Notes under the pieces: generated by a model
Seen by the model: the letters and a program-made list of their open reading frames with translations, nothing else
What the model was told of the DNA's origin: nothing
Databases searched by the model: none
NCBI GenBank assembly: GCA_024137785.1
Contig: JAHRHZ010000004.1
Location: 33,398,344 to 33,462,343 of the forward strand
Direction: 5' to 3'
From: Ginglymostoma cirratum
Lineage: Eukaryota
DNA: 64,000 bases
Part shown: in pieces, positions 9,196 to 48,842 of the stretch
How positions within the stretch are numbered: position 1 is the first letter of the stretch
Layout of the letters: each line of letters begins with the position of its first letter
Made by a program: the position numbers and the translations under genes

Positions 9196-10707
9196 TGGGG
9201 TCAAATAATAAAAAGATGAATTCCATTGATTGTAACTCATCATTTGAATACTCTAGCTCTCCCATTATTGCATCCAGCTGTGTAATGTATGTTTCTGATT
9301 TGGTTTTACTGCTGTGCCTGGGGTGTTTGCTCAGAGGTTTTTACACTGTGTGAAATGAAAATGTACTTTGCAGCTGTCCTGCACCGAGGAGATAATTTGA
9401 ACCACTGAACAGAACTCGACTTGTTTGCACTATTAACCCTTGGAGCAGACTCATTTTGTTCTTGATCCTTTGTTGTCGGTTTAATCCTTGCCACAGCTGG
9501 CATCTCCAATTTGTTGATTTAGGTGAAGCTAAATCATCTAGAAAATGGGCTGTGTCTTGAAGACCTCACTTATTATGCAGCAGGTAACGGGAAAATGTTC
9601 AGGCAGTTTCCATTAGACCATGTAAACTGATCATATCCATTGAATTGCTTAAGCTCACTGCATATTATTCACTTTGAAGTAATTTCCATTCAAATTGGAT
9701 GGCCAGCTCCACTGTCGGTGGCATAGTGGTAATATCATTGAACTGGTAATCCTGTGGCCCAGGCTAATGCTGGGGAACAAGTTCACATCCCCTCATGGCA
9801 GTGGGTGGAATTCAAATTCAGTTAAATAAACCTGGAATTGGAAACTAAACATAATTTTATCATTGCTTATCACAAAAACTAGGGGTCTCTACATGTTCCT
9901 TAATGGAGGAAAATCTGCCGTCCCTACCAGGTTTTCTTTGCACATGACTCAGCAATGGAGCTGTCATTTACTGCCATCCAAAATGGCCCAGCAAGTCACT
10001 CAGTTCAATGTTGAATGTTGGGAAACCTTGAGGCCCCCGTTCTGTCAATGTTAGGATGGTACTTCCTTTTCATTCCGGGTCATGAGTGCATAATTTGTGC
10101 TGCTTGACCTGGTTTGCCACCTTTTAAGTGTTGCACTTCCTGACAAAGAGCTCAGTTTGCTTTCCAGCTTACGACATCTACAGTAAAGTTCAGGGTGAGA
10201 ATTTGCTTCTGGACTGGGAGTTGTTTTCCTTTTTGAGGATTGTACTGAGATGAGGTGCAGGTGAATACAGACTTTGGTGCAAGGATAATAATTGACCTTC
10301 ATGTACAGACTAGACTTGGGACCTTTGCTTTAATCACTGCCTAATCTAGCTCTTCTGCTACGCTTCTGCTGCTGACTAACCTGTGCACTAATGTGGGGGT
10401 ACCATGTTGGCTATTTGTTGGTCAGGGCTTGCAAACCTTGCAGTGTGTTGCATAAAGCCTTTCCACACTGATACACAAGTACTGAACATACATGAGAAAA
10501 TCTACTAGGCTGAAATAAGCCTATTGTTGTGAGCAATAGAGCCTTCAGCACACAGTCTTTGTGCTTCAGTAAAATAGTCCAAAACAAAAAGTCTAAAGTG
10601 AAACCAATCTAAACTAACCAACTAGCTGTCAATCTGAGGCCAAATGATCGTATTCAATGTAAATATTTCTTTAAAGAAGGAAAAGGTGTTTTTGTTTGCT
10701 GACCAAG

Positions 10708-12637
10708 ACCTTTTAATCCTTTAAGAAGAAATCTAACAGAATTCTGCAAAGTTGGGATTCAGACGGTAAAGCTGGAGTCCCAGATGCTGATTCCAATTGA
10801 ATGTGAGAAGAATGGCTTCAGAAATTTCACTGGCAATGTTACAGAACCTGGTCCGAGCAGAAAACACATGGCCAGTAACACTACTGCTTTAGCAGAAACA
10901 TCAGGCAATGCTTCCAGCCCAGCTGCAGTTACTGTGCCAACAATTCTGCCAGCCAAGACCACCACAAAACGGAGGATATATAATCTCAGGCACCTGATGA
11001 AAACATCTCTGATTGGCTTCAACAGAAGGCTAACCATGTTAGAGGACACAGGTTTGGACCTTAAAGATGGCTTGAAACATTTACAGAAAAGGCAAGACAA
11101 CTTAAGCTTGCAGTTGAAGAACCTCACCCGTATGTTGTCAGCCCCTCCTAAAGACAAACTGATCTCCGACTTGCAATGGAAGTATACAGATGTCGATAAC
11201 AAGTTGACGGCTTTGCAAGTAAGGCTGGAAATTCTTATTGATGGTTTTGCAGCATTGGCTGAGGAGATCTCCGAGCTAAAGAAAAGGAGGATTTCGCTCA
11301 CCAACAGTGATCAAGCAGATCTCACTGTAGTCACCACTAGTTCTCCTGCAAAGCCATTGACAAAACACACCAGAACTAACTTAAAAGTGAAGCTAACATC
11401 TGACGGAAACCACAACAAAACCTCAAGTTTTGTTTCCAAAAGACCTTCGGTTAAAAAACCCAGTCTCCCCACACCAAGCAGAATGAAGAGCAAAATGTCT
11501 CGCTTTCACAGAAAAGCAGCTACCACCGTCGTCTCTGCGACAACTGTACAAAGACATGTCAGATCCACAGCTGCTCCTCTGCAATCTACAAGCAAAGTCC
11601 AGGTGAAGAAGAAAGTTAAAGTGTCTATTAAAAATAATGGGCATAAAAACTCAGCTGTGTTTGGTAAAGGCCAAGCTGTTGTTAAACAGATCCCCACAAC
11701 AGCGATATCTGCAGTAACAATTACGCCTGCAGTAACCCTTGAACTAGTCTCATCTACCACACTGTATTCCAACATAACTGTGGTCACCATAGAGCCCAAG
11801 ACATTGACAACCCAGCCCATTCCCACAGCTGTGGTAGAGAAACCCACAAAATCACACTTACCAGCATTGAGGACAAAAGTAAAACCTAGTTACATAGACA
11901 TGGTAAATAATGCAACGATCCCAGTTAGGATTAAGGGTAAAATAAACTCCGGTAATAAAACCGTTACAAAGTCTAAAAGTAAAACCAAACCTGGTAAAAA
12001 TGGAACTGGGCACTCTGAGCATAAATCGAAACCTGGTACAAAAACATCAACACAGTCTCAAGTTAAAGCAAAACATGGTAGAGAAGGAACAACAAAACTC
12101 CTTACTACAACCGTAAAACCCTCAGTGACAGCAACACGGAATAGAGTTAGATCTCAAAAGCATAAAATCAAAAGCCCGTCGTCAGCAGATAGTACTAATA
12201 CATCCATCCACTGGACAGAAAAGACATTGATTAAATCAGGGGCTGCTGCGTTGTCTGCAGTGACAGCACAGCCTAAACCTGTGGGCAAAGTGAGAGAACG
12301 GCCAAAATTGGTGTTTGCCAGGAAGATTCCTGAAAAGGCAGAGACCCTGTTGACACTTAGCACGCCACTCCCAGCAACTGCGTCCGCCCAGAAAAGATCT
12401 GAAAGTCGAGCAATGAGTGGACCACAGACTCAAAACTGTGATGACAATAACCGTCCCAGAAAGAAACTAGCAGAGGGTAGAAGGAGAAAGACAAAGAAGG
12501 CAACTGCTCTAGACATCCTGCGAGTACTGCGAGGAGAGCAACGACACTCTTCCAACTCACATCGCAAAAACAAGGACCTGCCACTCTATATTACTCTGGG
12601 TCGCCTAGCCATACCAATAAAAATTATCCCAGATTGA
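10708..12637 (+). CDS. Candidate alternative last exon of HSPG2 (about 642 aa: coiled coil, basic mucin-like stalk, hydrophobic C-terminus); alternatively a nested gene exon
   Basis: 1.9-kb stop-free frame (open from 10703; 617-aa ORF from ATG 10784); pyrimidine tract tgtttttgtttgctgacc-aag| gives a phase-2 acceptor matching the 4061 donor; not transposon-like. Confidence 0.75.
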
Positions 12638-33133: not shown

Positions 33134-33328
33134 GTTTCAAGTCCATTTGTTCCACCAAACGACTTTCAGAACTTCTCCCTGGTGAATCGTCAGCGCACCA
33201 CACGCATCACCTCGGGATTTACAGTGACAGTGAGAGACAGGCAGCCACAGCTGTCGTTTGGACGGTTTGGGCAGTACACACAGGAATCCTACTACTGGCA
33301 GCTTCCAGAGGTGTTTCAGGGTGACAAG
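33134..33328 (+). CDS. HSPG2: Perlecan exon, start of laminin IV (L4) domain 3 (VSSPFVPPNDFQNFSLVNRQR...ESYYWQLPEVFQGDK)
   Basis: ctgtag| ... AAG|gtacag, phase 0/0; YWQLPExxQGDK motif. Confidence 0.95.
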
Positions 33329-35070
33329 GTACAGCTCCAGACTCTCCATCTAAATACTTTGGACCTCGAACTTCATAAGTTTAAGAATACTCTGAGGTGA
33401 ACCAAGCAGGGCTTGGTGATATGTGAGATGATCAAAATTGTTGAACAAATGTTTAAGGTTTACATATTTGGGATTACATTTTATGCTATTAGTCTACCAC
33501 AATCATTTTTTGAGTATTTATAGTTCGCAGACTTTGGTGTTTGTTAATTCTGTCACGTAACATTCTTCAATGATATCAAACACACTGAGCAGCAAATGGT
33601 GTGACTATGGCAGAGCAAGGACCTAGTGTGAAGTTATGGAGGAGGTCCTATCACCATGAACATTTTGGGGGCTCATGAACGTCCTGATGTTCTGCCCTCT
33701 ACCTGACTGGCAGGTCAGGGGGTGGGAGGAGTCACTAATCAGAGGAGTCTGGAGACAGGGTTTCTTTGCACTGCCCTGTCAATTGGTCAAGGTATTTGTC
33801 AGTAGTTGGCTCAGAGGCTATTGATCAGGCTGATGAGCCCATTGGTTTCGTTGAGCAGCCAAGCTGAGCACTCCAGCTTGGTATGCTGGAAAAGGCACTT
33901 AACATGTCACCTTTCACATCCCAATCACTGCCAAGTCTCCTGATTCTGGGGAAACTGGTCTAGCGGGAGCTCATTGCCGCATTAGGCAAACCCCAGCTAA
34001 TTAAGTTCATTACATTATTCACAATATCCGTGCTGTGAAAATTGTTATTTGTTCGTCTCATGATCCCACATTTCAGTTTTAACTTCCCCACAATGGGTGG
34101 GTATTTCTGCTAATGTTGAGGCTAATGTTACAGCGTTAACATTGGGATGCTATTTTTGCATGTTGGTATGAACTTAATGACCACTATATGCGTCTGATGA
34201 GTTTTTAGTCTTTATTACATGTTACAGCGTGGACTGTAGAGATGGATAACACTGTTCAATTTCATTTAAATTCTATAGTTTAGTGTAACCATGGATTAGA
34301 AAGTCTATGCATGTGTTCTAACACATTTTTAGTGCAATGTGCAATTCTCTCAGTTTCATTATGTTCACGGCACTGTTGTGGATTAACCATTCCTCCAGAA
34401 ATTCTGACATAAGAGTGCATGCTAAGATGTAGACTTGTATTCTCAGATGTAGCTTTTGAAAGCTAAAAAAGCTTTGATCTATTTTCAATTTTGAAAAATG
34501 TCAAATTCCAAAGGATAAAGATTAAATTCTCCCTTTCTCTCTGCAAAACTGATCTAACTCAGATGCCATTTAACAGATGTTGATATGCATGGAGCTGACG
34601 GAGACTGAAGATTAATCGGGGACTATATCAAATGTAGAATGAACATTAATCAAGTTTTACACATGTATGTGGAAAGTGTGATATTGTCTTTCAAAGCAGA
34701 GAAATTGGTGATTGTAGACTGACTGCCGAGACTGGTACCAAAGACCTGTGGCAGATGTGTTTTGAGCCAAGGTCATAAATCACTTGGATAAAATTAGAAA
34801 GGGCCAACTCACCCTGGTTAAAAAAAAAACAAACTCCCCCAGAGAAGCAATGCAAAATTATATGGTGTCATTGCCTGAACACACAGATCTTACAGTCAAA
34901 TTCCATTACCTCTTCAACTGTGAACTATATTTCCTATAGTTCATTTCTACTTTATGCAGCCAAGATAGCTACTGCGCTTGGGTCTGCTGTTTCAGACTCT
35001 TCCTGTCTAACATACTGTTCACTGCTCAGTACTGGATTGTCTCTGACCATTATTTATTCCCTTTCTTCAG

Positions 35071-35109
35071 AGGGAGCAGTTCTTTGCTCGTATTAGACGA
35101 GGACACAAG
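35071..35109 (+). CDS. HSPG2: Candidate cassette micro-exon c1 (REQFFARIRRGHK)
   Basis: ctgac branch site, strong pyrimidine tract, cag|; AAG|gtagtg; 39 nt, phase 0/0. Confidence 0.6.
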
Positions 35110-36519
35110 GTAGTGTTTGCATTCAGCCTGTTGTGGCTCTCTCTCTGGGTTGGAGCACTGTGTTCGTCTGCTTTGGCTTGGCTTTGAATTGTTGGCTTGC
35201 AGCAGTAATAATATGCCTTGTTTTTTGCCAGTTGAAACTGTATTTTGGGATTAGATGGTGGGGTGATATCTAAGTCCTGGGATGAAGTTGTCTTTGCTGG
35301 GTTTAGATGGCTGGGTAATGAAAATAGGATTCATGTCGTTCCAGCTGACTTACCAAACATTCCAAAAGCAGTAAGACAGGGGCCACATTGTCTGCTTCTC
35401 CTCTCACCTCTGAGTGGCTCTCAACAGAAGACAGGAAAGATGGAAAAATGCCACTGTCTTTAAAAGGAAAAGCACCCTGCAACAAGTGCATATTTCCTCC
35501 AAAGAGAAAGTTCAGAATTTCACAATCAGGGTAGTAACTAAACAAGAGCTGAGAAATATAGTTAGATGTCTGTTGTCAAGACTGAAAAGAAGAGTGTGTG
35601 AAGATTTAATGTAGAATCTCCCTCTGATATCCTCCAGCCATTGATGAATCTGGAACCATCACCAGGTAAACTCCTTGGCACTTCAGCCTTATCTGTTTAA
35701 TTTGCATTCAACTCCGGTGTTGTGACTTTGAAATAACAATTTATAAAATCCTTAACATAAACACAAAAACCTGCGTGTGCTGGACTTCTGAAACAAGAAT
35801 GAAGTGCTGGAGAGAAGCAGCTGGTTTGGCTGCATCTGTAGAGAGAAAACAGTAATATTTCGAGTGTAGTCACCCGTCATCAGGACTGACAATAGCTGGG
35901 AAAGGGTGGCACTTATGCTAATGACTGGGTGGAGGGTCTGAGTAGAGTGCAAAGTGCTTTCTCCATGTACTCTGTTCACTCCCCTGACTCCCACCCAGTG
36001 CCCTGGTGAGCTGCCACCTTGAACTGTTGCAGTGGTTGCAGCGTAGTTCTTCCACAATGATGTTAGGGAGTGAGCCCCAGGACTTTGATCCAGCAACACT
36101 GAAGGAATGCAATACGATTCCAAATCAGGATAGTATGTGGCTTCAACGGGAACTTGAAGATGTTCCCATGTATCTGCCCTGGTCCTTCTGGATGATAGTG
36201 GTTGTGGATTTGGAAAGTGCTATTGAGGGAGGCTTGGAGCGACATTACAGCTTGAAGAATTTTCCCAGAATATCAGAAGCTTAGGTTTAAATATTGACAT
36301 GGATATGACCATACTAATCTTTGTCTTGAAAGTCAAATTCAAACAGGGATGTGTTACCTCCAGTGTGCTATTGAAGAGTCAGCCCACAATTCTCAGAAGA
36401 ATGCATTGTGCACAGTTTCAAAATCTGATTTTCATCCTTTTCCCGGCAAACCTTTTACATTCAGGAACAGGATCCTGGTCTCGTGGCTGATATTTATTCA
36501 TCCACTATCATCATCAAAT

Positions 36520-37110
36520 AGCAACATTTATATAGCACTTTTAGTATAGAACATCTCAGTAATTATGACCAGGCAAAATCTGACAGCCAGCCAGTGATGA
36601 GTGATCAAAAACATGGTTAATGAGGAAAGATTTAAGAAATATCTTGAAGAAGTGAGTTGTTGGGATTTACGGAGAGAATTCCAGACTTCTGTTGGCCTGG
36701 GCCACTGGCAGATGCAAAAGAAATGGAAAATGCTCAATATGTCAGAGATATGGGAATGCTGAGATCTTGGTTGGTCTCAAGACTGATGAAAGGTCTAGTG
36801 AAAAGGAAGAGTGAGGATTAAGCACAAGGATTAGAACTTTAAATTTGAGGCACTATGAGGACAGAAGGCATTGCACTAATTGAACTATAAGGCAAATGGT
36901 TGACTTGGACTTGGTGCGAGTTAGAAGATGGGAAACTGAGCTCACGTGTCTGAAGTGGAAAATGGGAATGTGTCTGGAAGGGATTGGAATTGTCAAGCCG
37001 GAGGATAATAAAGACAGGAATGAGAGTTTTAACAGCAGGTGAGCTGAGAAAGAGGTGAAGGCATTGTTTTTGGAGAGATTGAATTACTGAGCTGTCAAAT
37101 TCAGCCAAAG
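36520..37110 (-). mobile_element. Degenerate L2-type LINE 3' fragment
   Basis: Minus-strand remnant FLSSPAVKTLIPVFIILRLDNSN, resembling the L2 RT C-terminus; related piece at about 53050-53400. Confidence 0.6.
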
Positions 37111-38785
37111 GTCAAGACTCATACTATAACCAGGGAACAGGGATAAAATGCATGGCTGGAGAACACAGATTGTCCCATGGGCCATTACAGTTGTTGTAGT
37201 CTTTCAGGTATTTAATTTAGTTTGTGCTCATGTAGTACTGCATGCATCGTAACAGCATGACAAATCATAGACTGTGGGAATTGAGTGTGGCGTGGTGCAG
37301 TTCTGCTGATGACAATCTAGTCATTATATTATTGCTGTTTGTGAGAGTTTTCTGTGCGCTCATTGGCTGTCACATTCCCTTCATTACAACAGTGGCTACA
37401 ATTCATTGGATATGAAGCATCTTGAAGCATCCTAAGGCCATGACAAGTGATAAATAAATGAAAATTTTTCTTCAATTTTCCCACAACTTCACCATCCAAG
37501 TCTTTTCTATTGGTAGGGATCTTAAGAGAGGGGATGTTTTTCAAGTGATTCTGGAAAACTTGAGCATTTCTTTCTCCATCTCTGTTCATTTTTTGCGTTG
37601 CCTCAGGCATTTCAAATTCTCCCCTCTAGAATCATTTCCTAATAAAAATTTGAAAATGGCTGTTTTGTTTCTAAGTTGCTGTCTTCCCTTCCCCTTTCCC
37701 ATTCTTAAAAGTCTTAAAAGAACGATATTAACCATTCACTGCAAAGATAACATATATTTGCAGAACATGAAGTCTTTACATTCTAAATTTACAACATGAA
37801 TGGGCTTCACGATGTTTACCAGCATCTCTTACGTTTTGTTTCATTTCATAACTGGCTTAACATGAGATTAATGCCAGCATAGCCAAGCTTGAGCCAAAGA
37901 TGGAACTCCGAAAGGTTGTGGACGCTGGATTAATTGAAACTTTCAGAACTGTAATAGATTTGTTTTTTATTGATGTAAAGGCATTAGGCAATTTGGAGAA
38001 AAGCATGTTCAATGGCTTGAGGTTCGAATCAGCCATAAGAGGCTGAATGGCTTCCACTTGTTGCTAAGTACAGCTTGAAGCCCCTGAACTGTGATTTTGG
38101 TTACTATTCCAGTCGAAGCTTGGAAGATTAATTTGAAGTCAAAGTCAGAGTAAGCTGATTCTTCTTCAGTTATTAAATATAAATTGGCAGGCAGCATGGC
38201 CAAGGGGCCTGAGGTGCTGGAGGATTAAGGCTCTAGCCTTTCTGGAAAAAAAAAGGTCTTGTGGTACAGTGATAGTATCCCTATCTCTGAGCCAGGAGGC
38301 CTGGGTTCAAGTCCCACCTACTCCAGAAATGTGTAATAACCTGTCTGTACAGGTTGATTAATATAAATTGGCATCTGTTGTGCAGCTGGGATAGTTTCTG
38401 TGTTTTGTGCAGATAATGATAATCCCTGTTTGGCTTTGCTGTTGTCAATCATCAGAAAATTCTATTAACTATTCTTGCACCTGCAGATCCTGAAATTGAA
38501 AAAGCATAAAAGCAATTTTCTGGTTCTTTATTAAGTTTCAGCAAGCTTTCAAACTGTTTGGTGGACCATGTTTCACATTCAATCAACTTTGACTGGAAAT
38601 GATTTGGTCTACTTACCTTAGCTGAACTCAACAAAATAGCCAGACCATTTTCAAAACTGTCAGAATTTGTGTCCGCCATAGTTATTTTGTTTTTGTTTGC
38701 ATTGATGCTGGGTCGAGTGGAGCTGTGTGCTCAGCAGTAGGAAGAATTTGTAATCCTAAATAACATGCAAAATTGCATTAATCAG

Positions 38786-38887
38786 AAAGACCCATCTTTG
38801 ACTGAGGACCAGCTGAGGAAAGATGCAGCCATCTGGGAACTCTTGAGCACCTCTTCATCGTTTCCTAGGGTTAAGCGATCCTCAAAG
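38786..38887 (+). CDS. HSPG2: Candidate cassette exon c2 (KDPSLTEDQLRKDAAIWELLSTSSSFPRVKRSSK)
   Basis: atcag| (weak pyrimidine tract) ... AAG|gtagca; 102 nt, phase 0/0; peptide similar to c3; TGCATG at 38901. Confidence 0.6.
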
Positions 38888-39354
38888 GTAGCAGTGAAGC
38901 TGCATGACACAGTGTGGAGCATGAATTTTACCATGACTGTTGCAAGCTATATGTAGAGTAGATTTGAACTTGTTCACTCAATTAGTCTAATACACAGGTT
39001 TATCTCAGTTTATGTAATTTGCATTTTCATAACTCATTTATTCCCCCACCCACCTTGAAAGAGTATGGTAAAAGTAATAAGTCAAAGCACAACCAATTGT
39101 TTACCTTGTATTTAATTACTTTGCATGTGTACTGTACTGTAAAGCATGGGAATTATTTAGCTAAATTGTTACTGGCCCAAATCAATTTTATATTTAATTT
39201 TAAAGGTCCATGCATCAATGACGCAAGTGGGATTCAACTCCCATACATAATACATAAGTACCTATATCATTTTTGCATGGAGCAAAGTGGTTTCAATTCC
39301 AGTATCAATCGTTCAAGAAACCTCCCAAAGAGTTTAAGTAGTCAGGTGTTGTGA

Positions 39355-39795
39355 AAGCAAACAGTACAGAAGGAGACCATTCCATCCATTGTACCTGTAT
39401 CAGTTCTGTGAACAAGTAGCCTCTTAGTCCCACTCCCATTATTTCTCCTGCAACTCTGTGGATTTTTCTTTTCCAAAGTGAATATCGAACTTGCTTTTGA
39501 AAATTATCAATGAACATACTCTAACACAGCATATTCCAGATCCTTATAACTCAGTATTTGGAAAGAAAAATTCTCCCCCTGTCTGTAATGGTTTTCCTGT
39601 CATCATTCAAACCTGAATCCCATGGTTGCAGCCTCTTCTGTCAGTGGGAATGGTTTCACCCGATTTGCTCTGTGCAACCTCCTCATAATTTTGGCCACTC
39701 TGTAAATTCTCCGTGGGACCTCCCTTGCTCTAAGGCTGATAATCCCAGTCTCTCCACGTGAAGTGCGCTCCCCCACTTCTGGTACCATTCTGGTG
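39355..39795 (-). mobile_element. Degenerate CR1-type LINE 3' fragment
   Basis: Minus-strand remnant TRMVPEV...IYRVAKIMRRLHRANRVKPFPL. Confidence 0.6.
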
Positions 39796-40392
39796 ACTGG
39801 TTGTGTTGTTTGTGAATGGTAATGATCTGCAGTGATAATGGTGAAGACACTACAGGCGTCCTTCAAACAAAGGGTGAGCTGGGTCAAAATAGAGCCATGG
39901 TATTGCATCAGTCTGTCAAGATTGGATCTCAGAGTGATGCAGGGAAGGGGTGCATTAGCACGCCAGTAGCCCCCAGTGATGGTTTCTCCAGAGATAGTAG
40001 GAACTGCGGATGCTGGAGAATCTGAGATATTTCTCCAGCATGATTTAGTCTTTGTTTGGATAATATTTTGATCTTAATACTATGATTTAATTCTTGGAGT
40101 AAGTTGAACATTTAACAGCAGATTGAAATCCTTCTAAGGACAGCAATGAATATTGGGTATTTCTGTGGGCTGCAGAGAGTTAGATAAATGCATGAAGCAG
40201 TTCAAAACAGGAAAAAAAAATATAGAACTGTTTTGAAAACAAAATGCACAGTTAATCATCCTTGTCTGTGCTGCGATTTTATGTGCATTTATTGTTCATT
40301 GAGTGGTGAGCTTACTTTGCAAGTAATTGCATTCAAGTTTTTATTTAATGTAAACACTATTATAGACAACTTGTTCCTTCACTCCTTTGTAG

Positions 40393-40695
40393 TCTGTGCC
40401 TGATATGGAAGAGCAGAAGCGTATAGATGATGAAATATGGGCAATTATATCTGGCTTTACTGCTGAGCAGTCGCACAAACCACGTGTTCGTGGCCCACCG
40501 GGTGGCAGCGATCTGTCCAATGCTTCCCGTCCATTATCTCGACTGGCCTCAGCAAGGCCTGCTGGGCCACCTGCTCCCTCTTCCTCCCGCAATCCATCAT
40601 CTCATTCCATACGCTCACCTTCCTCTTCAAGACCCGCTATTTCCCGTTCTTCTCGTCCCTCATCTCTACTTTCTCGTCCTGGCGACCACAAAAAG
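40393..40695 (+). CDS. HSPG2: Candidate cassette exon c3, 101 aa Ser/Arg/Pro-rich (SVPDMEEQKRIDDEIWAIISG...SRPGDHKK)
   Basis: ttgttccttcactcctttgtag| strong acceptor; AAG|gtatgg donor; 303 nt, phase 0/0, stop-free, GC/CpG richer than its flanks. Confidence 0.75.
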
Positions 40696-42631
40696 GTATG
40701 GAAATCTCACAGCAATGGGAATAAGATCATTCGCTTAAGTCCTTGAGTTTCTTTTTAGGTTTAGGGTTCACAAAAGGTCAACACAGCATTTTCCATCTGG
40801 TTAAATGCCCAGAAGCGTGCATTGAGTGATGTCTGTTTGACTGGAGAATAGTAAACTTGTCTATTTGCAAGCTATTTTCAAGTACAGCATAGAATGTTCC
40901 ATTGACAACTTGTCCTAGTAGCTGAATAGTTGATGCCGGCAATAGTCCTGCGTGCCTGGAGGTTCATTGGTTTTGAAGTGGCCTAGTGGCAAAATAGTGG
41001 TGGTAGGTTATGTAGGGCCCCCCCTCCTCCCCCCAATGGTTGCATGTACCGTTGTGTCTATTCCTCAGCCTCTAGGTCACAAGGAAATGGATTTAAGGCA
41101 CTTCCTCTGGAAACAAAATGGGAAGGTGGTCAACTGGAATAAAGATTGATGGAAACACCCAGCAAGTCAGGCAGCATTTGTGGAGGAACAGAGTTAACAT
41201 TACAGATTGGTGGCCATTCGATGGATAGGGATAGGGATCAGTTTGTAAACTAATGTTGAGCCTCAGTGGCAGGGTGGTGGGGCGGGGGAGCAGAGGGTAA
41301 CGGTGAAGGAAGGAACAAAGTGCGAGGTCCACAATAGGCGGGTGAGAAGAATTGATATAAGGATGATGATGCAAGGCATATAAGGGTTTGGTAATGGGAC
41401 ATCCAAAGAAATATAAGATGGATGTAGAGAAGCTAGTGCCAATAATGGAATTATCAGTGGCTTATTCCTCTTGGGTCTTACAGTAGAGGTTTTATTCATA
41501 TTAATATTGCAGTTAGTTACGCAGAACATACATTGAGGAGTTTTGATCAAGTTAAGTGGGACACACTGTTTTCATTAAGATGCTAGTCAGTATCATGATT
41601 GCTAGGCAGTGTGGAAGGATAGACAAAAGAAACAAAGCACCAGAGAGAGATGGGAATTTATGCCAGGAGTTTTCGTGATTGGCAATGTGCTGTCTGATTG
41701 AATCTGGTTTCTAAGATCATGTACGAAAAGGAATTCGGGAATAATATAGGATTTTGGAGAAAGAACAAGAAAGTGGGACTGTAATCAGATAGCAAGCAGG
41801 GCCAAAAACTGGCTTTGCCAATAGTTGGCAGTGATTTGCTCAGCTAGTACATGTTCTCAGCCTCTAGTGTTCTGCAGCTTCAACTGAGACTTTGTGCACA
41901 ACAGAGGAGAGGAAAGTTGCATGACTTGCCCGTGCCATGATGTTCCTTAGCTGACTGCCTCCTGTTGGGCTGCTGAGATCCAAGACTTGTGTAAACCAGC
42001 TGAATGAATCAGGGAAGGCTGTTTTCCACCTAGGGACTGCAGTCACGTCAGAGATATTTTCATCCCTTTCCTTGGAGATGGATTTGATACATAGAAGGAA
42101 AGTTGGTATAAACACTCGGGTAGAAAACCACCAGCATGTGCAGTCTGAACAGATTATGTAATCGGGATTCTGCAAGAGCTCAAAGATGAGAAAATTTGAA
42201 TTGAATTTTCTAGTCATCAGCTTTGGGTGTGAGAAGCGTTATTGAGTGAAGCATGATGCAGGACAGGAAGCCTCTGGGCTTAACTGCTTTGCCTTTTTAT
42301 TATCTGCTGTCATCTTCAAGAGCAACATCTGGTTGGGAAGGAGGAAGTGGGTGTGCAGTTTTCTCATCCTCCTGGAAAACGTACACTGGTTTGGAGAGTT
42401 AGGTTTCCGTTAGAATTTCTTTGTATGATCACTTGGCAAGGCGACCTACTGGAAGGGCTAATGTAAACATTCTCCTACCTGAGGCAGGGAAGGGGAGAAA
42501 GATGGGAGTTCAAAGAAAATGTTAGTGTTATTCTTCATTTGTATGTGTGAAATTGAATTTGTTTCTAACTGAACCAGTTCCATTATGAATCAATTAAATT
42601 GAGTGTTGAATTTCTCTGCGTGCACCAACAG

Positions 42632-42730
42632 ATGAGAAACATTCCTCAGACCCCTTCACTGCAAACTCAGGAATCGTCAAACCTAATTTCTTCACCCATG
42701 TCGGGCCTAAGGTCTGGAGGTTTTGAGAAG
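42632..42730 (+). CDS. HSPG2: Candidate cassette exon c4 (MRNIPQTPSLQTQESSNLISSPMSGLRSGGFEK)
   Basis: ctaac branch-like site upstream, caacag| ... AAG|gtagcc; 99 nt, phase 0/0; TGCATG at 42749. Confidence 0.5.
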
Positions 42731-45063
42731 GTAGCCACAGTTAGCTCATGCATGGAATGTTCTGGCATCCTTGTGACCGCATGCACGTCTAAGGTGTGAA
42801 TGTTTTCAGAAAGCAGCCTGTGGGACCACAAATTCAAGGCCGTTGGGAGGAGAAAAGTCAGCCCAAGGAGCAGCTCAGAATGCCAGAGTTTGTGGATGTT
42901 GTTGGTATTCACCATGCAAATTGGCTCAAGGTGGATTTAAAAAAGCAACAAAATGACAGCATATTTGTGTTCAAAGTAAAATTATGTAGAAAATAGTTGA
43001 AACACTGCCAAGTTTATGCTATCCTGCATGATTTTTAACATGGTCATGAACCTCCGCTGGCTATTGCCATCTTTATTTAACGTCTGTTGAGTGTTAATTG
43101 GAACTAGCATGTGCACAGCTTTGATGTAATTGGTTCAAAGTTGTATGTGTGGACAAGAGCTCTCCTGATATCCAGTGGTGTTTGTGAATTATTATACGTG
43201 GAACCATTGAGTTGAGGCAGTGTCTTTTGAGAGTGGCCTCACGTGTCCCTTACACATAAACAAACAAAGAATTTGTTAAATGTTCTGAGATGGAAGGTTT
43301 CTCTGCTGGTAGCTATCTCTCCCTGAATTGCCATCAGAGATACTTTACCATCAGCTTTTAGGCATTTTTGCCATAATGTGTCAAGCATCTTCAAGTTTCC
43401 TGTTAAAAACAGTTTGATGTCTGGCATCACACTTTCTGTTAGTTGCCACATCAACATTGGATGAAAGAAAGGTTAGTAGGTGTAACTGGAAACCAGCTTT
43501 AGTTTAGCATGTCAAAGCATATTTACATTTCATTGGTTCCCTGCGGTGTTTTCAGAAAGTTTTCTTTTCAGCAAGGAAGTGAAACAGAGCCAAGAAACTA
43601 AACAGGATTTCCCTAACTCTCTTTTGAAAAATAAAACTTCATAAAAACAAATTAACTTCCCATTCAGAAGCCTCTCAAGACTTGCAATAGCCACTCCTGT
43701 CATCACAGCTCACGTTCCAAAGGAACTCTCCATGAGTGGAGCTCTGTTGGATACCAGCCAAACCCAAAAAGAAATGATGTTGACCCAGAACATTTACCAG
43801 ATTTATGTCGGGTTTCTGCAAAAGGAAAATCCCAGTTAAGGTTCCAGTCTCTAATGCCAAAACTGATGGGGAACTCTGTTATAATTCATCTTTAATAGTT
43901 CTTGTAGATTGACCATACCTTTTGATTTCCAAGAACCTCAGTAAGTGCAGGAATACTCTCTCTTGTTAATTTTTACCGTACCTTCAAACAACAAGTGGCT
44001 TGGATTTCAGAAGACAGGGAAATTGCATGTTGATTGAAAGTTTTCTCAAATGGAAAAATTGAAGAAATAAGGTAATTTTTTTTAGGTTTCTTTTATCTTT
44101 TGACCTCCCCACTGCCACACAATAGGCTCGTGGGCCCTGTATTCCCAGAGAGAGAGAGAGAAAATGAAAAGCTAATAACACTTGGAAATGGACATACTTG
44201 TCATACAGGAGCTGCATTCTGAAGTATACCAGTCAGACCAATATGTGTCATTTGTCAATTCTGTTGGATCTGCCTTCTGGGAATTTTTATAAGTTGTCTT
44301 GTATTGCTTAAAGCCATCAGTTGAATTAGCCCTCATGCTGGAAGAATGAAACCTTCCTGTGCAGATTCAGATGGCCCACCATCTCCTGGAAGAACAAGCA
44401 GAAGACAATTTTCCAAGACTCTCAAGTGAAAATTTTGTAAACTTGTGCCTGGCTAACATTCCAGTACTCCCACTCTGGGATTTTCTCCATTTTGGACATG
44501 GCAACCCTCTGCTTCTGTAGGTGGGGAGGGCTTTGCATGTTGGCCACGTAGAAACCCTATGGCTCTGTTTGTGAACTTTGGAGTGACCTTGAGCTTGTTG
44601 CCAGGTTATAGTGCAAGTCCGATGCTCAGCTGACCCAAGTAGCAAATAAATCCTGTAATTAAAACAAAAAGTGCTGGCAATAATTAGCTAATCAAGCAGA
44701 GGTGGGTGAAACAATTAGCATTTCAGGGTGATGACCTTTCAGCAAAAGTGCATGTCCTGCCATTGAGTTAACTTCTGATGTGTTCATTTTGCTCATTCGT
44801 GTGGGTTTTTCCTGAAAATACTATAAATCTGATGTGCTGTAAAAATTTGGTTGCTTCAGAAAGACTCAGAATTTTCAAATAATTCCATAAAAGTGCCTTG
44901 TCAAAACAAATCTCTCTGCATTTTGTCAGTGAGGAATGGTTGGTCTCTGCTCCCTGAAACAAGCCTGGAGAAGGAATTCCAGTGCATGTCCTTGAATGTG
45001 TTTGCCTGCGGCTCTGTATCTACTTTCTCTATTCATCTTGTGTCTGCCTCTTTCATATCCTAG

Positions 45064-45147
45064 CACTCTCTGCTTTACAAGGGCTTCAGCCTCCTTCCTG
45101 AAAGCAATTACTATTGGCGTCTACCTCACCAGTACCTGGGGAACAAG
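45064..45147 (+). CDS. HSPG2: Candidate cassette exon c5: duplicated L4 segment (HSLLYKGFSLLPESNYYWRLPHQYLGNK)
   Basis: tgcctctttcatatcctag| ... AAG|gtaacc; 84 nt, phase 0/0; paralogous to the end of exon 33134-33328. Confidence 0.85.
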
Positions 45148-45849
45148 GTAACCAGCATTTCCAGTAGTGGTTAGAATCTACAGTTTTGCACAGCTGTACT
45201 TTGGAAAATATTTCCAAATGGTAAGAGTTATATGTGCATTACTGATTTAACATGACAAAGTCTTTGTGTATGTTTTTCAAGAGAGATCCACTGGTGAGTC
45301 ATGATCGGTGGCTTGGCAGAGAAAATGTTTAAAGTCTCTGGATCTCGCTTCAGATTCTCTGTTACCAGTCAAAGTACTCTGAGTTCAGCTGTTGGATTCC
45401 TGCATTCAAAATTGATTGAATAACCAAGATTTCTAGATGTTGGTTTTGCAAAAGAGTATCGTTAATCACCAACAAGACAAGAATGAAGTGTTGACCAGAA
45501 AGTCTTCATTAAAAAGTACTGGTCCTCGTGTTGCCTGGTACAGAGGAGAGTGGCCAGCCAAGAAAACTGATGAAAGATGCTTTGTTGGTGATGGATGGAA
45601 CGGCACAGGAGCAATGAAGTCATTCCATTTTAGAAGGTTAAATGTGGGGAATCCAGTGAGATAATGACTCATTTTTTGAATAGAAAGCCTTTTCTTCTCC
45701 AGTGTATTGATATTTAATAAATCACATTAAGGTTTGTTACTTTCTTTATTGATGTTGAGAAAAATGTTGGTAGCTATTACTTAGATTAGAACACATTTTA
45801 ATAGGGAGCAGCTGTAAAACTGAGTAAGTCGACAAACTGTTCCTACTTG

Positions 45850-46150
45850 AGGGAGAGTCTGGGACTACAGTCATAATCTCAGGATTACGGATTGAGATGA
45901 GGAAGAATTTCTTCTCCAAGAGGATAATGAATCTGTGGAATTCTTTACCACAGAGGGCTGTCAAGGCTAGGTCATTAAATATATTCAAGGTGAAGTAGAC
46001 AAATTTTCATTCAGCAAGAGAATCAAGGATTATGCAGAAAAGGTAGCAAAGTAGAGTTGATGATTATCAGATCAGCCATAATCTAATTGAATGGTAGAGC
46101 AGACTCAATGGGCTGGATGGCCTTTTTCTGCTCATACATCTTCTGGCCTT
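45850..46150 (+). mobile_element. CR1-type LINE 3' fragment
   Basis: GAGATGAGGAAGAATTTCTTCTC...TTGAATGGTAGAGCAGACTCAATGGGC. Confidence 0.7.
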
Positions 46151-48749
46151 GTGGTCAGTGAAAAGCTTTCTGTCTCACCAGCCAGCTCAGAATCTATTAA
46201 CCGTGTGTGTGGTATTTTATCTTCCTCAACCAAAAGAGTTGGTTCAAAATTAACATTGCAACTCGTTGTCTGGCCAACTCTGAATGCCTAATTAATAGGG
46301 TTGTAATCAATATCAACTCACTCCATTGCTGATTTCCAAGACCCCTCTGCTTGAGAAAGGGGAGGGATTCCTTTCCTACAGAAGTGTGTTAGTTCAGTTT
46401 ATACTCATTATATCAGTTGAGGAAACTTGAGCGCACACTTAGTAGATCAAGTAGTTCTACTTAGTAGACTACATATTAGCAACAAGTCATAAGTATGGTA
46501 CGTACATGATCGTACAATGTAATTGACAGTTGTCTGAATCAGAACAGTGTAGCCAGATTAACTTGTCTTTATTTACCAATCAATGCATAAAGAAATGCTT
46601 AAAGAAATGAGTGGTTGCCCTCAAACAATAAATATTTCTGGCTAATCCCAGATTCTGCTAATATCTAACACAATTTGTAGAAATTTTAGTGGAAAGGTCT
46701 GATGTCTGTAATTATACTTGAGTGATGGGCCACATTTATGCAAATAGTCTTCAATTAGCAAGACTGCACCATAACTGATTTTTTGCTTGACTACATGTCA
46801 TTCCAATTATGCATGCCCGATTCCGGAAAACTTGGTTTTTAACTGACCCAAAGTGGTGCAGTGGAATAAAAACGCCCTGAAACTCAGTATTTCTGGGTAG
46901 GCTTCAGTTCATTCGGCTCATTTATGTCTTTGCCTGACTCAGTTAAGGCTGGATAAGTTTCTAAACACTGTGCTCAAGGCTGCTCCAGCATCCAAAGCAG
47001 CAGAGGAGCAATGTGACGATTCCCAATCTTGAACTTCCAAAATTGTACATGAGTTGGATGAAGATCCACAGGCTTTCACTTTCAGATGAGCAATCTTGCA
47101 TACAAGGCGAGAAACATTTTCATGTCACTTTTCGTGTTTTGTGTTAACTTTTTGCTTGTAATCTGTACTTGTTTGACATTCTGAGGACGTAAATCACAGC
47201 CTTATGTGGGTTTTTGTAGGAATATATTTCAAATAGCATGGTTTCAGTTAACACAGCTATTTGATTTTCAGGAATGTAACTATTACTTTAATCAAGGACA
47301 ACCTGTAAAGGAAATAATGGAAGAAAAGTAACAAATGTCGTCTTTTACTTTGTTCAGTAATGTCTAAAAGGATACAACAACCAGGGAAGACTGAGTCGGC
47401 TGGGGTTTACGGTCAGCAACAGACAAGACTTGGGCACTGCTACAGGCCTTTAAAATTGTAAAGGGTTACATAGGAACAGTAGTAGCACATTTAGCTTCTC
47501 AAGCTTGCTCTACCATTCAATTAGATTATGATTGTTGTGTATCTCAACTCCATTTAAGTGCTTAGCTTCATATTCCTCAATAAACTAAAATCAATAGATA
47601 GCAGTTTTTAAATTTTACATTGTTTTCTCTGCAGCCTCAAGAGTTTTTTGGGGAGGAAGCAAATTCCACATTTTTACTAGGGTGAAGAAGTGGTTTTTGA
47701 TGTCGACACCCTACCCCTCGTTTTCTCTGTTTTATCTGGGTAAATTACCAGTTGTCCGTCACAGATTGCTTGATGGGCTAGAATAACATGTTTCATCACA
47801 AGCCAGCCTTGGGTTTGTAGGTGGATATTTTGTTTCCTTATGGTCGATGTTCACAGTTGAAAGTAATTACCTTGCCCTAGGGACTAGTTGGGATATATGG
47901 TGGTGAAGCACTTTTATGAAAGCTAACAGCACAATCTGCACTGAGATATTTACATAAATTAGTCACTGTCTATTCATTTCACAGCTGTTTATGTTGTCAG
48001 CTCTGTCACAGTGGCACTATGATTATTTAACACTGACACAGCCAGTGGTTTCTGGTTCCAGCCTTGAGTGAAACCCAATAAACATGTCCCTGTCAATAAG
48101 CATTACTACGTGCTTTGAATATGGCTGTTTGCATTTAGCCACGTTGATGTGAGATGTCAGGACATCTTAATAAATGTCCCCTAATTAGCATCAGTCCATC
48201 ATTCTTCTAGTTCCTAGCCTCAGGCCAGAATGTGTCTGTTCTATAGTCTCTGTCCCAATGGCAGCAATTGCTAATTGATGGATGAAGTGAAACTCGCCCA
48301 GCTCCATTAACTGTGCCGTTCCTGCCTTGTTACATTTCACTTCACTCAGTGGCTCCATTCCATAGCCCTAGTGTTCTACTCCCTGCTTTACGTGATCCTG
48401 GCCCATCTCCTGGACTTCCACTGTGAGCAATACCACAAGAGGATCAATGCATTAATAATTGAGTCTTTAACTGAAGCACTGGAACATTGCGTCTTTTAAT
48501 AAGTATACACTATAATCTGTAAATTGATAACTTTGGCAATTTTCTAATTGTACAGTTTGTCAGCAACTTTGTAAAACTGATCATTATATTTCTGCAGATA
48601 CCAACTTTGCTGTATTATCTGACTTTGTTAAATCCAAGATGTGCTGGTGATATTGGTTCTCTATCTCTGCTCCTGGTTAAAATGTGGTGCTAATCCAAGT
48701 GTTGTATGTGTTTAAAGCATTCTTGTAATTTCTTTCTCATTTTGCACAG

Positions 48750-48842
48750 GTGACTTCCTACGGTGGACTCCTACGGTATACACTGTCCTACGATGCAGGG
48801 TACCGGGGTTCCTCAGTACCAGATGCTGATGTACAGATCATT
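48750..48842 (+). CDS. HSPG2: Perlecan exon, L4 domain (VTSYGGLLRYTLSYDAGYRGSSVPDADVQII)
   Basis: gcacag| ... |gtaagt, phase 0/0; YGGxLRYTLSY motif. Confidence 0.96.

Follow-up and report, generated by a model that had tools for sequence, protein, structure and literature searches.

The 84-nt exon at 45064-45147 (+) of the DNA analyzed here, a window of 64,000 nucleotides from Ginglymostoma cirratum (GCA_024137785.1, contig JAHRHZ010000004.1, positions 33,398,344 to 33,462,343), is almost certainly functional. It closes a five-exon cassette in the perlecan gene (HSPG2), and encodes a second version of a short segment of the gene's third L4 domain. In our best explanation, to which we assign a probability of roughly 0.7, the cassette is optional, the closing duplicate would act as a spare part for the L4 fold, and the loop thereby expelled would likely be cut by furin-type proteases.

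The window covers part of a cartilaginous fish HSPG2 gene on the + strand; in tblastn, residues 1224-1977 of the Stegostoma perlecan (XP_059511617.1) match it exon by exon at 80-100% identity. Pfam Laminin_B detects two L4 domains upstream and a third (L4-3) inside the window. Within L4-3, a 15.4-kb intron separates an exon that ends in GDK from one that starts with VTSYGG, and it is this intron that hosts the 84-nt exon. The exon is the last of five cassette exons, all of which have AG/GT splice sites and phase 0-0, and which together encode 209 amino acids, 197 of them identical in the insert of the Stegostoma protein. The features are as follows.

33134..33328 (+): constitutive HSPG2 exon for the N-terminal part of L4-3, with three strands and the original YYWxLP..GDK segment (copy 1); 98% identical to Stegostoma XP_059511617.1 residues 1383-1447, similar to PDB 9I5A, and included in the fold models.
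33329..48749 (+): cassette-bearing intron, with 19 sense-strand TGCATG (RBFOX-type) elements.
35071..35109 (+): cassette exon e1, 13 aa, a predicted helix with the furin-type motif RIRR; consensus fraction 0.78 in 44 rows, helix at 85-99 of the model.
38786..38887 (+): cassette exon e2, 34 aa, a predicted helix followed by the furin-type motif RVKR; among rows having e2, R is found at P4 in 37/39 and at P1 in 39/39; TGCATG lies 14 nt downstream.
40393..40695 (+): cassette exon e3, 101 aa, a conserved D-x-E-I-W helix and then a Ser/Pro-rich spacer; helix at 137-159 of the model, followed by pLDDT <50.
42632..42730 (+): cassette exon e4, 33 aa of poorly conserved spacer, absent from the mammalian inserts seen; TGCATG lies 19 nt downstream.
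45064..45147 (+): cassette exon e5, the duplicate L4 segment that closes every parsed insert, analyzed by alignment null, tblastn, conservation, tree, fold model and isoform parse.
48750..48842 (+): constitutive exon starting with VTSYGG, the continuation of L4-3; Pfam PF00052 positions 13-43, and tblastn.

Small shifts are seen at two of the acceptors: Chiloscyllium models start e4 3 bases upstream of 42632, which adds one Gln, and frog isoforms show one-residue shifts at the e2 acceptor. Elsewhere in the gene, a 23-kb HSPG2 intron (about 4071 to 27092) contains a 643-aa open frame at 10703-12634 (+) that ends in a stop, and that has a coiled-coil-like start followed by Thr/Ser/Lys-rich sequence. 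This frame had no match in Pfam, the Atlas or the collected perlecans, and no second genome copy was found for its first part. It could represent the final exon of a gene nested in the intron, or an alternative terminal exon of perlecan.

Across its junctions the 84-nt exon reads ...tctttcatatcctag/CACTCT...AACAAG/gtaaccag, and it translates into the 28 residues HSLLYKGFSLLPESNYYWRLPHQYLGNK. A preliminary description, made from the letters alone, had proposed that these residues align with the end of the exon at 33134-33328 and that the two exons share a donor phase. Both proposals hold: 9 of 28 residues are identical to the last 28 of that exon (BLOSUM62 score 52), and the phases match. The splice sites had also been called strong; AG and GT are present, with ranks from a crude in-house weight matrix that are good rather than exceptional (acceptor 98 of 4,391 AGs, donor 75 of 3,859 GTs).

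As a null for the segment match, we scored 2,627 stop-free 28-codon stretches that end at a GT, taken from both strands of the window and 40 kb upstream of it (104 kb). The duplicate ranks third with its score of 52, behind the self match (158) and the true end of the L4-2 exon (72), while the true L4-1 exon end scores 28 and the best unrelated stretch 15. Like the three true L4 domains, the duplicate has the motif W-x-L-P-x4-G-x-K at a phase-0 donor, and its W, L, P and G are invariant in 44 of 44 insert-bearing rows, which were chosen for spread. Identity to copy 1 is low in the DNA (37/84) and lowest at third codon positions (7/28, as against 15/28 at each of positions 1 and 2), so the likeness is one at the protein level. 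Pfam Laminin_B aligns the duplicate to profile positions 1-12 with an E-value of 0.19 and 12 bits, under the cut-off of 22.4; the segment is too short. A search of the organism's own genome found no second copy of the exon.

It might be supposed that the exon is a dead duplicate, or splicing noise taken up by annotation; taken alone it falls under the Pfam cut-off, and 57 of 240 parsed isoforms do without it. However, its conservation argues otherwise. In the 44 insert-bearing rows the duplicate has a mean consensus fraction of 0.74, as against 0.76 in copy 1 and 0.78 in both the next exon and e1; the same rows give about 0.5 for e2 plus the start of e3 (gaps counted against) and 0.30-0.31 for the spacer. 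As far as these alignments can tell, the duplicate is conserved about as strongly as constitutive exons, from chimaera to mammals, with identities of 28/28 in Stegostoma and Chiloscyllium, 26/28 in Mustelus, 24/28 in Amblyraja, and 22/28 in Callorhinchus and Hemitrygon. Third positions have diverged while the motif was kept. In DNA contigs of a related species (two runs from one study), none of 24 listed substitutions in 701 nt falls within the exon (p 0.044), which would be weak evidence of selection on its own. We regard the dead-exon reading as largely refuted and give it almost no credence. The preliminary suggestion of a functional exon cluster is supported, in that the exon is conserved, under selection and the last exon of every parsed insert. 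That description made no mention of the furin-type motifs, of the excess of RBFOX elements or of conservation reaching mammals.

A tree of the segments in 14 species, based on 28 columns and with the L4-1 segments and Microtus left out, places the duplicates in one group (support 97/86), the L4-3 segments in another (97/92) and the L4-2 segments in a third (94/81). The grouping of the duplicates implies a single origin, before the split between cartilaginous and bony fish. The source of the copy had been taken to be the exon at 33134-33328, and for this we find no backing: mean identity is 18.7/28 within the duplicates, 11.0/28 from duplicates to L4-3 and 11.6/28 to L4-2. The duplicate is as distant from one of these domains as from the other, and the identities do not single out a donor. 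Among the intron's open reading frames, none is similar to the initial 37 aa of the exon at 33134.

The same cassette is found in database isoforms across jawed vertebrates. Among 240 parsed vertebrate perlecans, which are isoforms, many per species and not independent, the insert and the duplicate occur together in 177, the duplicate occurs by itself in 6, and both are missing from 57; no protein has the insert without the duplicate. These isoforms are automatic gene models; NCBI 'X' isoform models as a rule rest on RNA-seq. The parse began with 258 vertebrate proteins of at least 2,000 aa, of which 18 stayed unparsed, and excluded six invertebrate proteins. The proteins came from the best 120 of 479 matches in a region search, together with their cluster members (at most 15 each) and a second search (38 matches); the ranking of the 479 used a region containing the insert, and this favours insert-bearing forms. 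Fifteen of the 18 unparsed proteins were re-read: 11 have an insert that ends in the duplicate, one further protein does likewise, and two have no insert. Of the remaining three, a turtle and a Hymenochirus model continue into sequence unrelated to perlecan's, and a whale-shark protein is without the region. Two draft models break the rule, a 1,300-aa bullfrog protein (P0083) with e2 and no duplicate, and a Hymenochirus protein (P0006) in which e2 is followed by unrelated sequence.

The insert is present in chimaera, sharks, rays, coelacanth, gar, bichir, paddlefish and teleosts, and in frogs, salamander, caecilians, turtles, lizards, snake, ostrich, opossum and placental mammals including rat and loris. 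In models from sturgeon and capuchin, the duplicate stands either by itself or next to a portion of the insert. Its optional nature is seen in frog isoforms, 10 of 15 with the insert and 5 without, and in sharks, which also have both forms; among the isoforms listed, four from one shark and five from one skate are without it. Assembled contigs placed on the window include none that joins cassette splice sites among the joints listed (in one set, 15 of about 1,450), a result that has no bearing on expression. A frog RefSeq isoform, retrieved in a search of 50% representatives, has 190 aa between GDK and VTSYGG that end in the duplicate. The matches listed include no human, mouse, lamprey or hagfish perlecan, and the insert is absent from the one amphioxus isoform seen. 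A first homologue search, limited to proteins of 115-2,000 aa, gave 2 matches, a metagenome scan found no relative, and an Atlas search with e3 returned no usable match.

Two further observations concern these models. In six (P0136, P0157, P0159, P0171, P0180 and P0326) the duplicate directly follows copy 1, with no other insert exon, and these are either real minor forms or incomplete annotation. Certain cyprinid perlecans (P0176, P0288-P0292, P0295, P0296 and P0298) have EDK for GDK in copy 1, and insert-free EDK models also exist.

The preliminary description raised the idea that the exon might serve a transcript starting inside the intron, that is, a shorter perlecan from a promoter within it. 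A hydrophobic, signal-peptide-like run does lie in frame upstream of e2 (38660-38737, +). However, we rejected it as a signal peptide, since it is closed by TAG and has no in-frame ATG; it is probably a chance occurrence. An in-frame stop also lies immediately before the acceptor of the 84-nt exon, and no parsed isoform starts in the cassette (best 120 of 479 matches, at most 15 members per cluster). Three strands from the upstream exon remain in the predicted domain, and the product of an internal promoter would be missing these strands, together with Cys1-3 of the laminin-EGF module. Among the isoforms covered, the idea is not supported, and we consider it very improbable.

When the cassette is spliced in, the duplicate's 28 residues would replace the original segment in the beta-sandwich and the insert would be expelled as a loop; L4-3 would stay folded because the duplicate takes the original segment's place. 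We compared AlphaFold models with and without the insert. The insert model, of the Stegostoma laminin-EGF/L4-3 stretch (450 aa, 44 rows, mean pLDDT 63, pTM 0.50), keeps the three strands of the upstream exon (16-22, 35-38 and 49-53) and leaves copy 1 (58-85) without secondary structure, with pLDDT <50 at 57-72. The duplicate lies inside the sandwich, as strand 267-271, helix 273-276 and strand 282-285 (pLDDT blocks 68-93). Helices are predicted in e1, in e2 and where e3 begins, and the spacer is modelled as disordered. With low-confidence stretches trimmed, the model aligns with the perlecan crystal structure 9I5A at Z 26.1 and rmsd 2.0 over 199 residues; its Z against laminin alpha-2 L4b (4YEP) is 21.8. 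In the insert-free control (Chiloscyllium, 241 aa, 28 rows, mean pLDDT 72), copy 1 takes the duplicate's places, as strand 57-62, strand 74-76 and helix 79-82 (pLDDT blocks 69-89). In performing this comparison, it should be considered that AlphaFold might pick the copy that adjoins the domain core by mere proximity. With this caveat, the models lead us to consider it very probable that the duplicate replaces copy 1. They also agree with the earlier suggestion that the exon restores the start of the L4 domain after an insert, in that the predicted folds rebuild L4 with the duplicate.

It is also conceivable that copy 1 stays in the fold, and that the duplicate is free or pairs with another molecule, as a domain swap or a second binding surface. 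The same core residues are retained in both copies, and the six isoforms in which the copies adjoin mean that one copy must lie outside the fold. However, the best insert model puts the duplicate into the fold, and a fold that kept copy 1 would require the loop to emerge between GDK and VTSYGG, which directly adjoin each other in the control model. Moreover, nine cyprinid proteins have lost the conserved Gly in copy 1, and the seven of them with an insert retain it in the duplicate. We judge this arrangement quite improbable.

The sequence R-x-[RK]-R is the consensus for furin. It occurs in 84 of 96 distinct inserts, compared with 0.22 occurrences per 4,400 aa over the remaining sequence of these proteins. 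The first site is in e1; the second is at the end of e2, where mammals mostly have only R-x-x-R. A convertase could cut the expelled loop at these motifs, and, judging from the motifs, we give cleavage of the insert in vivo an even chance. As for the fate of the halves, three cysteines precede L4-3 and five follow it. Passages of PMC6744579 give the laminin-EGF disulfides as 1-3, 2-4, 5-6 and 7-8, a pattern that in laminin alpha-2 is not disturbed by the insertion of an L4. Given this pattern and the 3/5 split of the cysteines, the two halves produced by a cut would still be linked through the 2-4 bond; the cysteine spacing fits such a bond across L4-3, with these laminin-EGF cysteines at low confidence in both AlphaFold models. 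The outcome would be a nicked, two-chain perlecan, held together by the Cys2-Cys4 bond of the host laminin-EGF module.

Cleavage at a strict motif cannot be universal, because 12 of the 96 distinct inserts are without one, including those of dog, otter, loris, marmot, pygmy sperm whale, medaka and carp. In addition, the helix predicted around the first motif may hinder cleavage. Both points would also fit a strand swap without cutting, in which the insert is a display loop of three basic or amphipathic helices and a Ser/Pro spacer that binds a partner or heparan sulfate or carries glycans, its arginines being conserved for binding. Positions unrelated to furin are equally conserved (A 40, A 36 and H 39, and D 43, E 39 and W 43, of 44 rows), and 44 of 75 inserts have an N-glycosylation sequon at the start of e2. 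However, in the second motif nothing but the two arginines is kept (37/39 and 39/39 rows), within a variable, low-confidence stretch, as expected of a convertase site, and the motif is almost missing from the rest of perlecan. We consider an uncut loop possible, if on the whole unlikely.

RBFOX sites downstream of an exon favour its inclusion, and RBFOX acts mainly in muscle and neurons. RBFOX2 is described as binding (U)GCAUG in passages of PMC10607600. The sense strand of the 15.4-kb cassette intron has 19 copies of TGCATG, compared with 23 in the other 88.6 kb (p 2.5e-6), which makes it the most enriched hexamer of 4,096 in this intron; the reverse strand of the intron has no excess (6, p 0.25). 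Copies lie just downstream of e2 and e4, as listed above, and another is 76 nt before the duplicate. These elements make RBFOX control of the cassette probable, in which case RBFOX proteins would switch it on in some tissues.

The cassette exons are not new as sequence, because they are already in gene models. Perlecan isoform models from Stegostoma (XP_059511617.1), Chiloscyllium (XP_072442898.1), Dendropsophus (XP_069802948.1) and rat (XP_038967229.1) have the same exons in the same order, with the duplicate last. Unlike the present analysis, these models attach no function to them, and the duplication, the motifs and the regulation are absent from the record names. The function of L4 is called unknown in passages of PMC6744579. 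Structures of L4, or laminin IV type A (PF00052), share the segment motif and the fold, namely 9I5A (perlecan region 3) and 4YEP (laminin alpha-2 L4b); these chains differ in that they match our model only outside the insert.

Where duplicated exons are mutually exclusive, a transcript includes just one of the two. The perlecan cassette resembles tandem exons of this kind in that a homologous exon segment can substitute for another in one fold. However, perlecan mRNA keeps both copies, and the choice between them is predicted to fall at the stage of protein folding and not of splicing: copy 1 is present in 183 of 183 parsed duplicate-bearing proteins (the parser requires copy 1, so that any form without it would be among the 18 unparsed) and in all 15 of the re-read unparsed proteins. 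The lengths also differ, at 84 nt and 195 nt, while the phases match. A second likeness is to glypicans, in which, according to passages of PMC4859157, furin-type cleavage yields two disulfide-linked subunits. Perlecan, too, is a heparan sulfate proteoglycan; its insert has a convertase motif, and a putative disulfide would keep the two parts together. Unlike in glypicans, the perlecan site is optional and added by splicing within a domain, and its cleavage is a prediction.

Regulated alternative splicing of the same gene has been described in rat smooth muscle, where passages of PMC6613909 and PMC10570038 concern a single 51-nt Hspg2 exon regulated by RBPMS, RBFOX2 and MBNL. Two rat isoforms (P0270 and P0265) differ by a 17-aa Pro-rich stretch at residue 192, which fits this published exon. 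We considered whether the cassette could be the RBPMS-activated exon and rejected this, since that exon fits rat residue 192, far N-terminal of the cassette. Lord et al. (2014) reportedly dealt with HSPG2 transcript complexity. A 2018 review (PMC6266596), in the passages concerned, contrasts few HSPG2 splice variants, involving domain I or terminal fragments, with many functional isoforms of worm unc-52. In the open literature we found no paper describing the cassette, and no description of its architecture, i.e., the closing duplicate, predicted strand swap, convertase motifs and RBFOX elements; most subscription journals, full splicing tables, and figure and bioRxiv supplements were outside the scope of this search.

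Taken to its furthest extent, the proposal is that jawed vertebrates make a tissue-regulated two-chain perlecan, in which an RBFOX-controlled cassette opens L4-3, the spare strands re-close it and a convertase cuts the loop. We put this forward tentatively, at somewhat under even odds. If it is true, a single disulfide would tether the heparan-sulfate-bearing N-terminal half to the Ig/LG half, new helical ends would be free for partners, and the basement-membrane scaffold would have a break point encoded by splicing. If humans keep the cassette, as rat, loris and capuchin do, variants in it would be counted as deep intronic against an insert-free reference, a point that concerns work on Schwartz-Jampel syndrome and dyssegmental dysplasia. 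The case would also be a clean one of a duplicated exon making a large insertion into a beta-sandwich tolerable. A cassette that predates the split of sharks and mammals, and that lies inside an L4 domain with its own refolding exon, would represent a regulated isoform of vertebrate perlecan.
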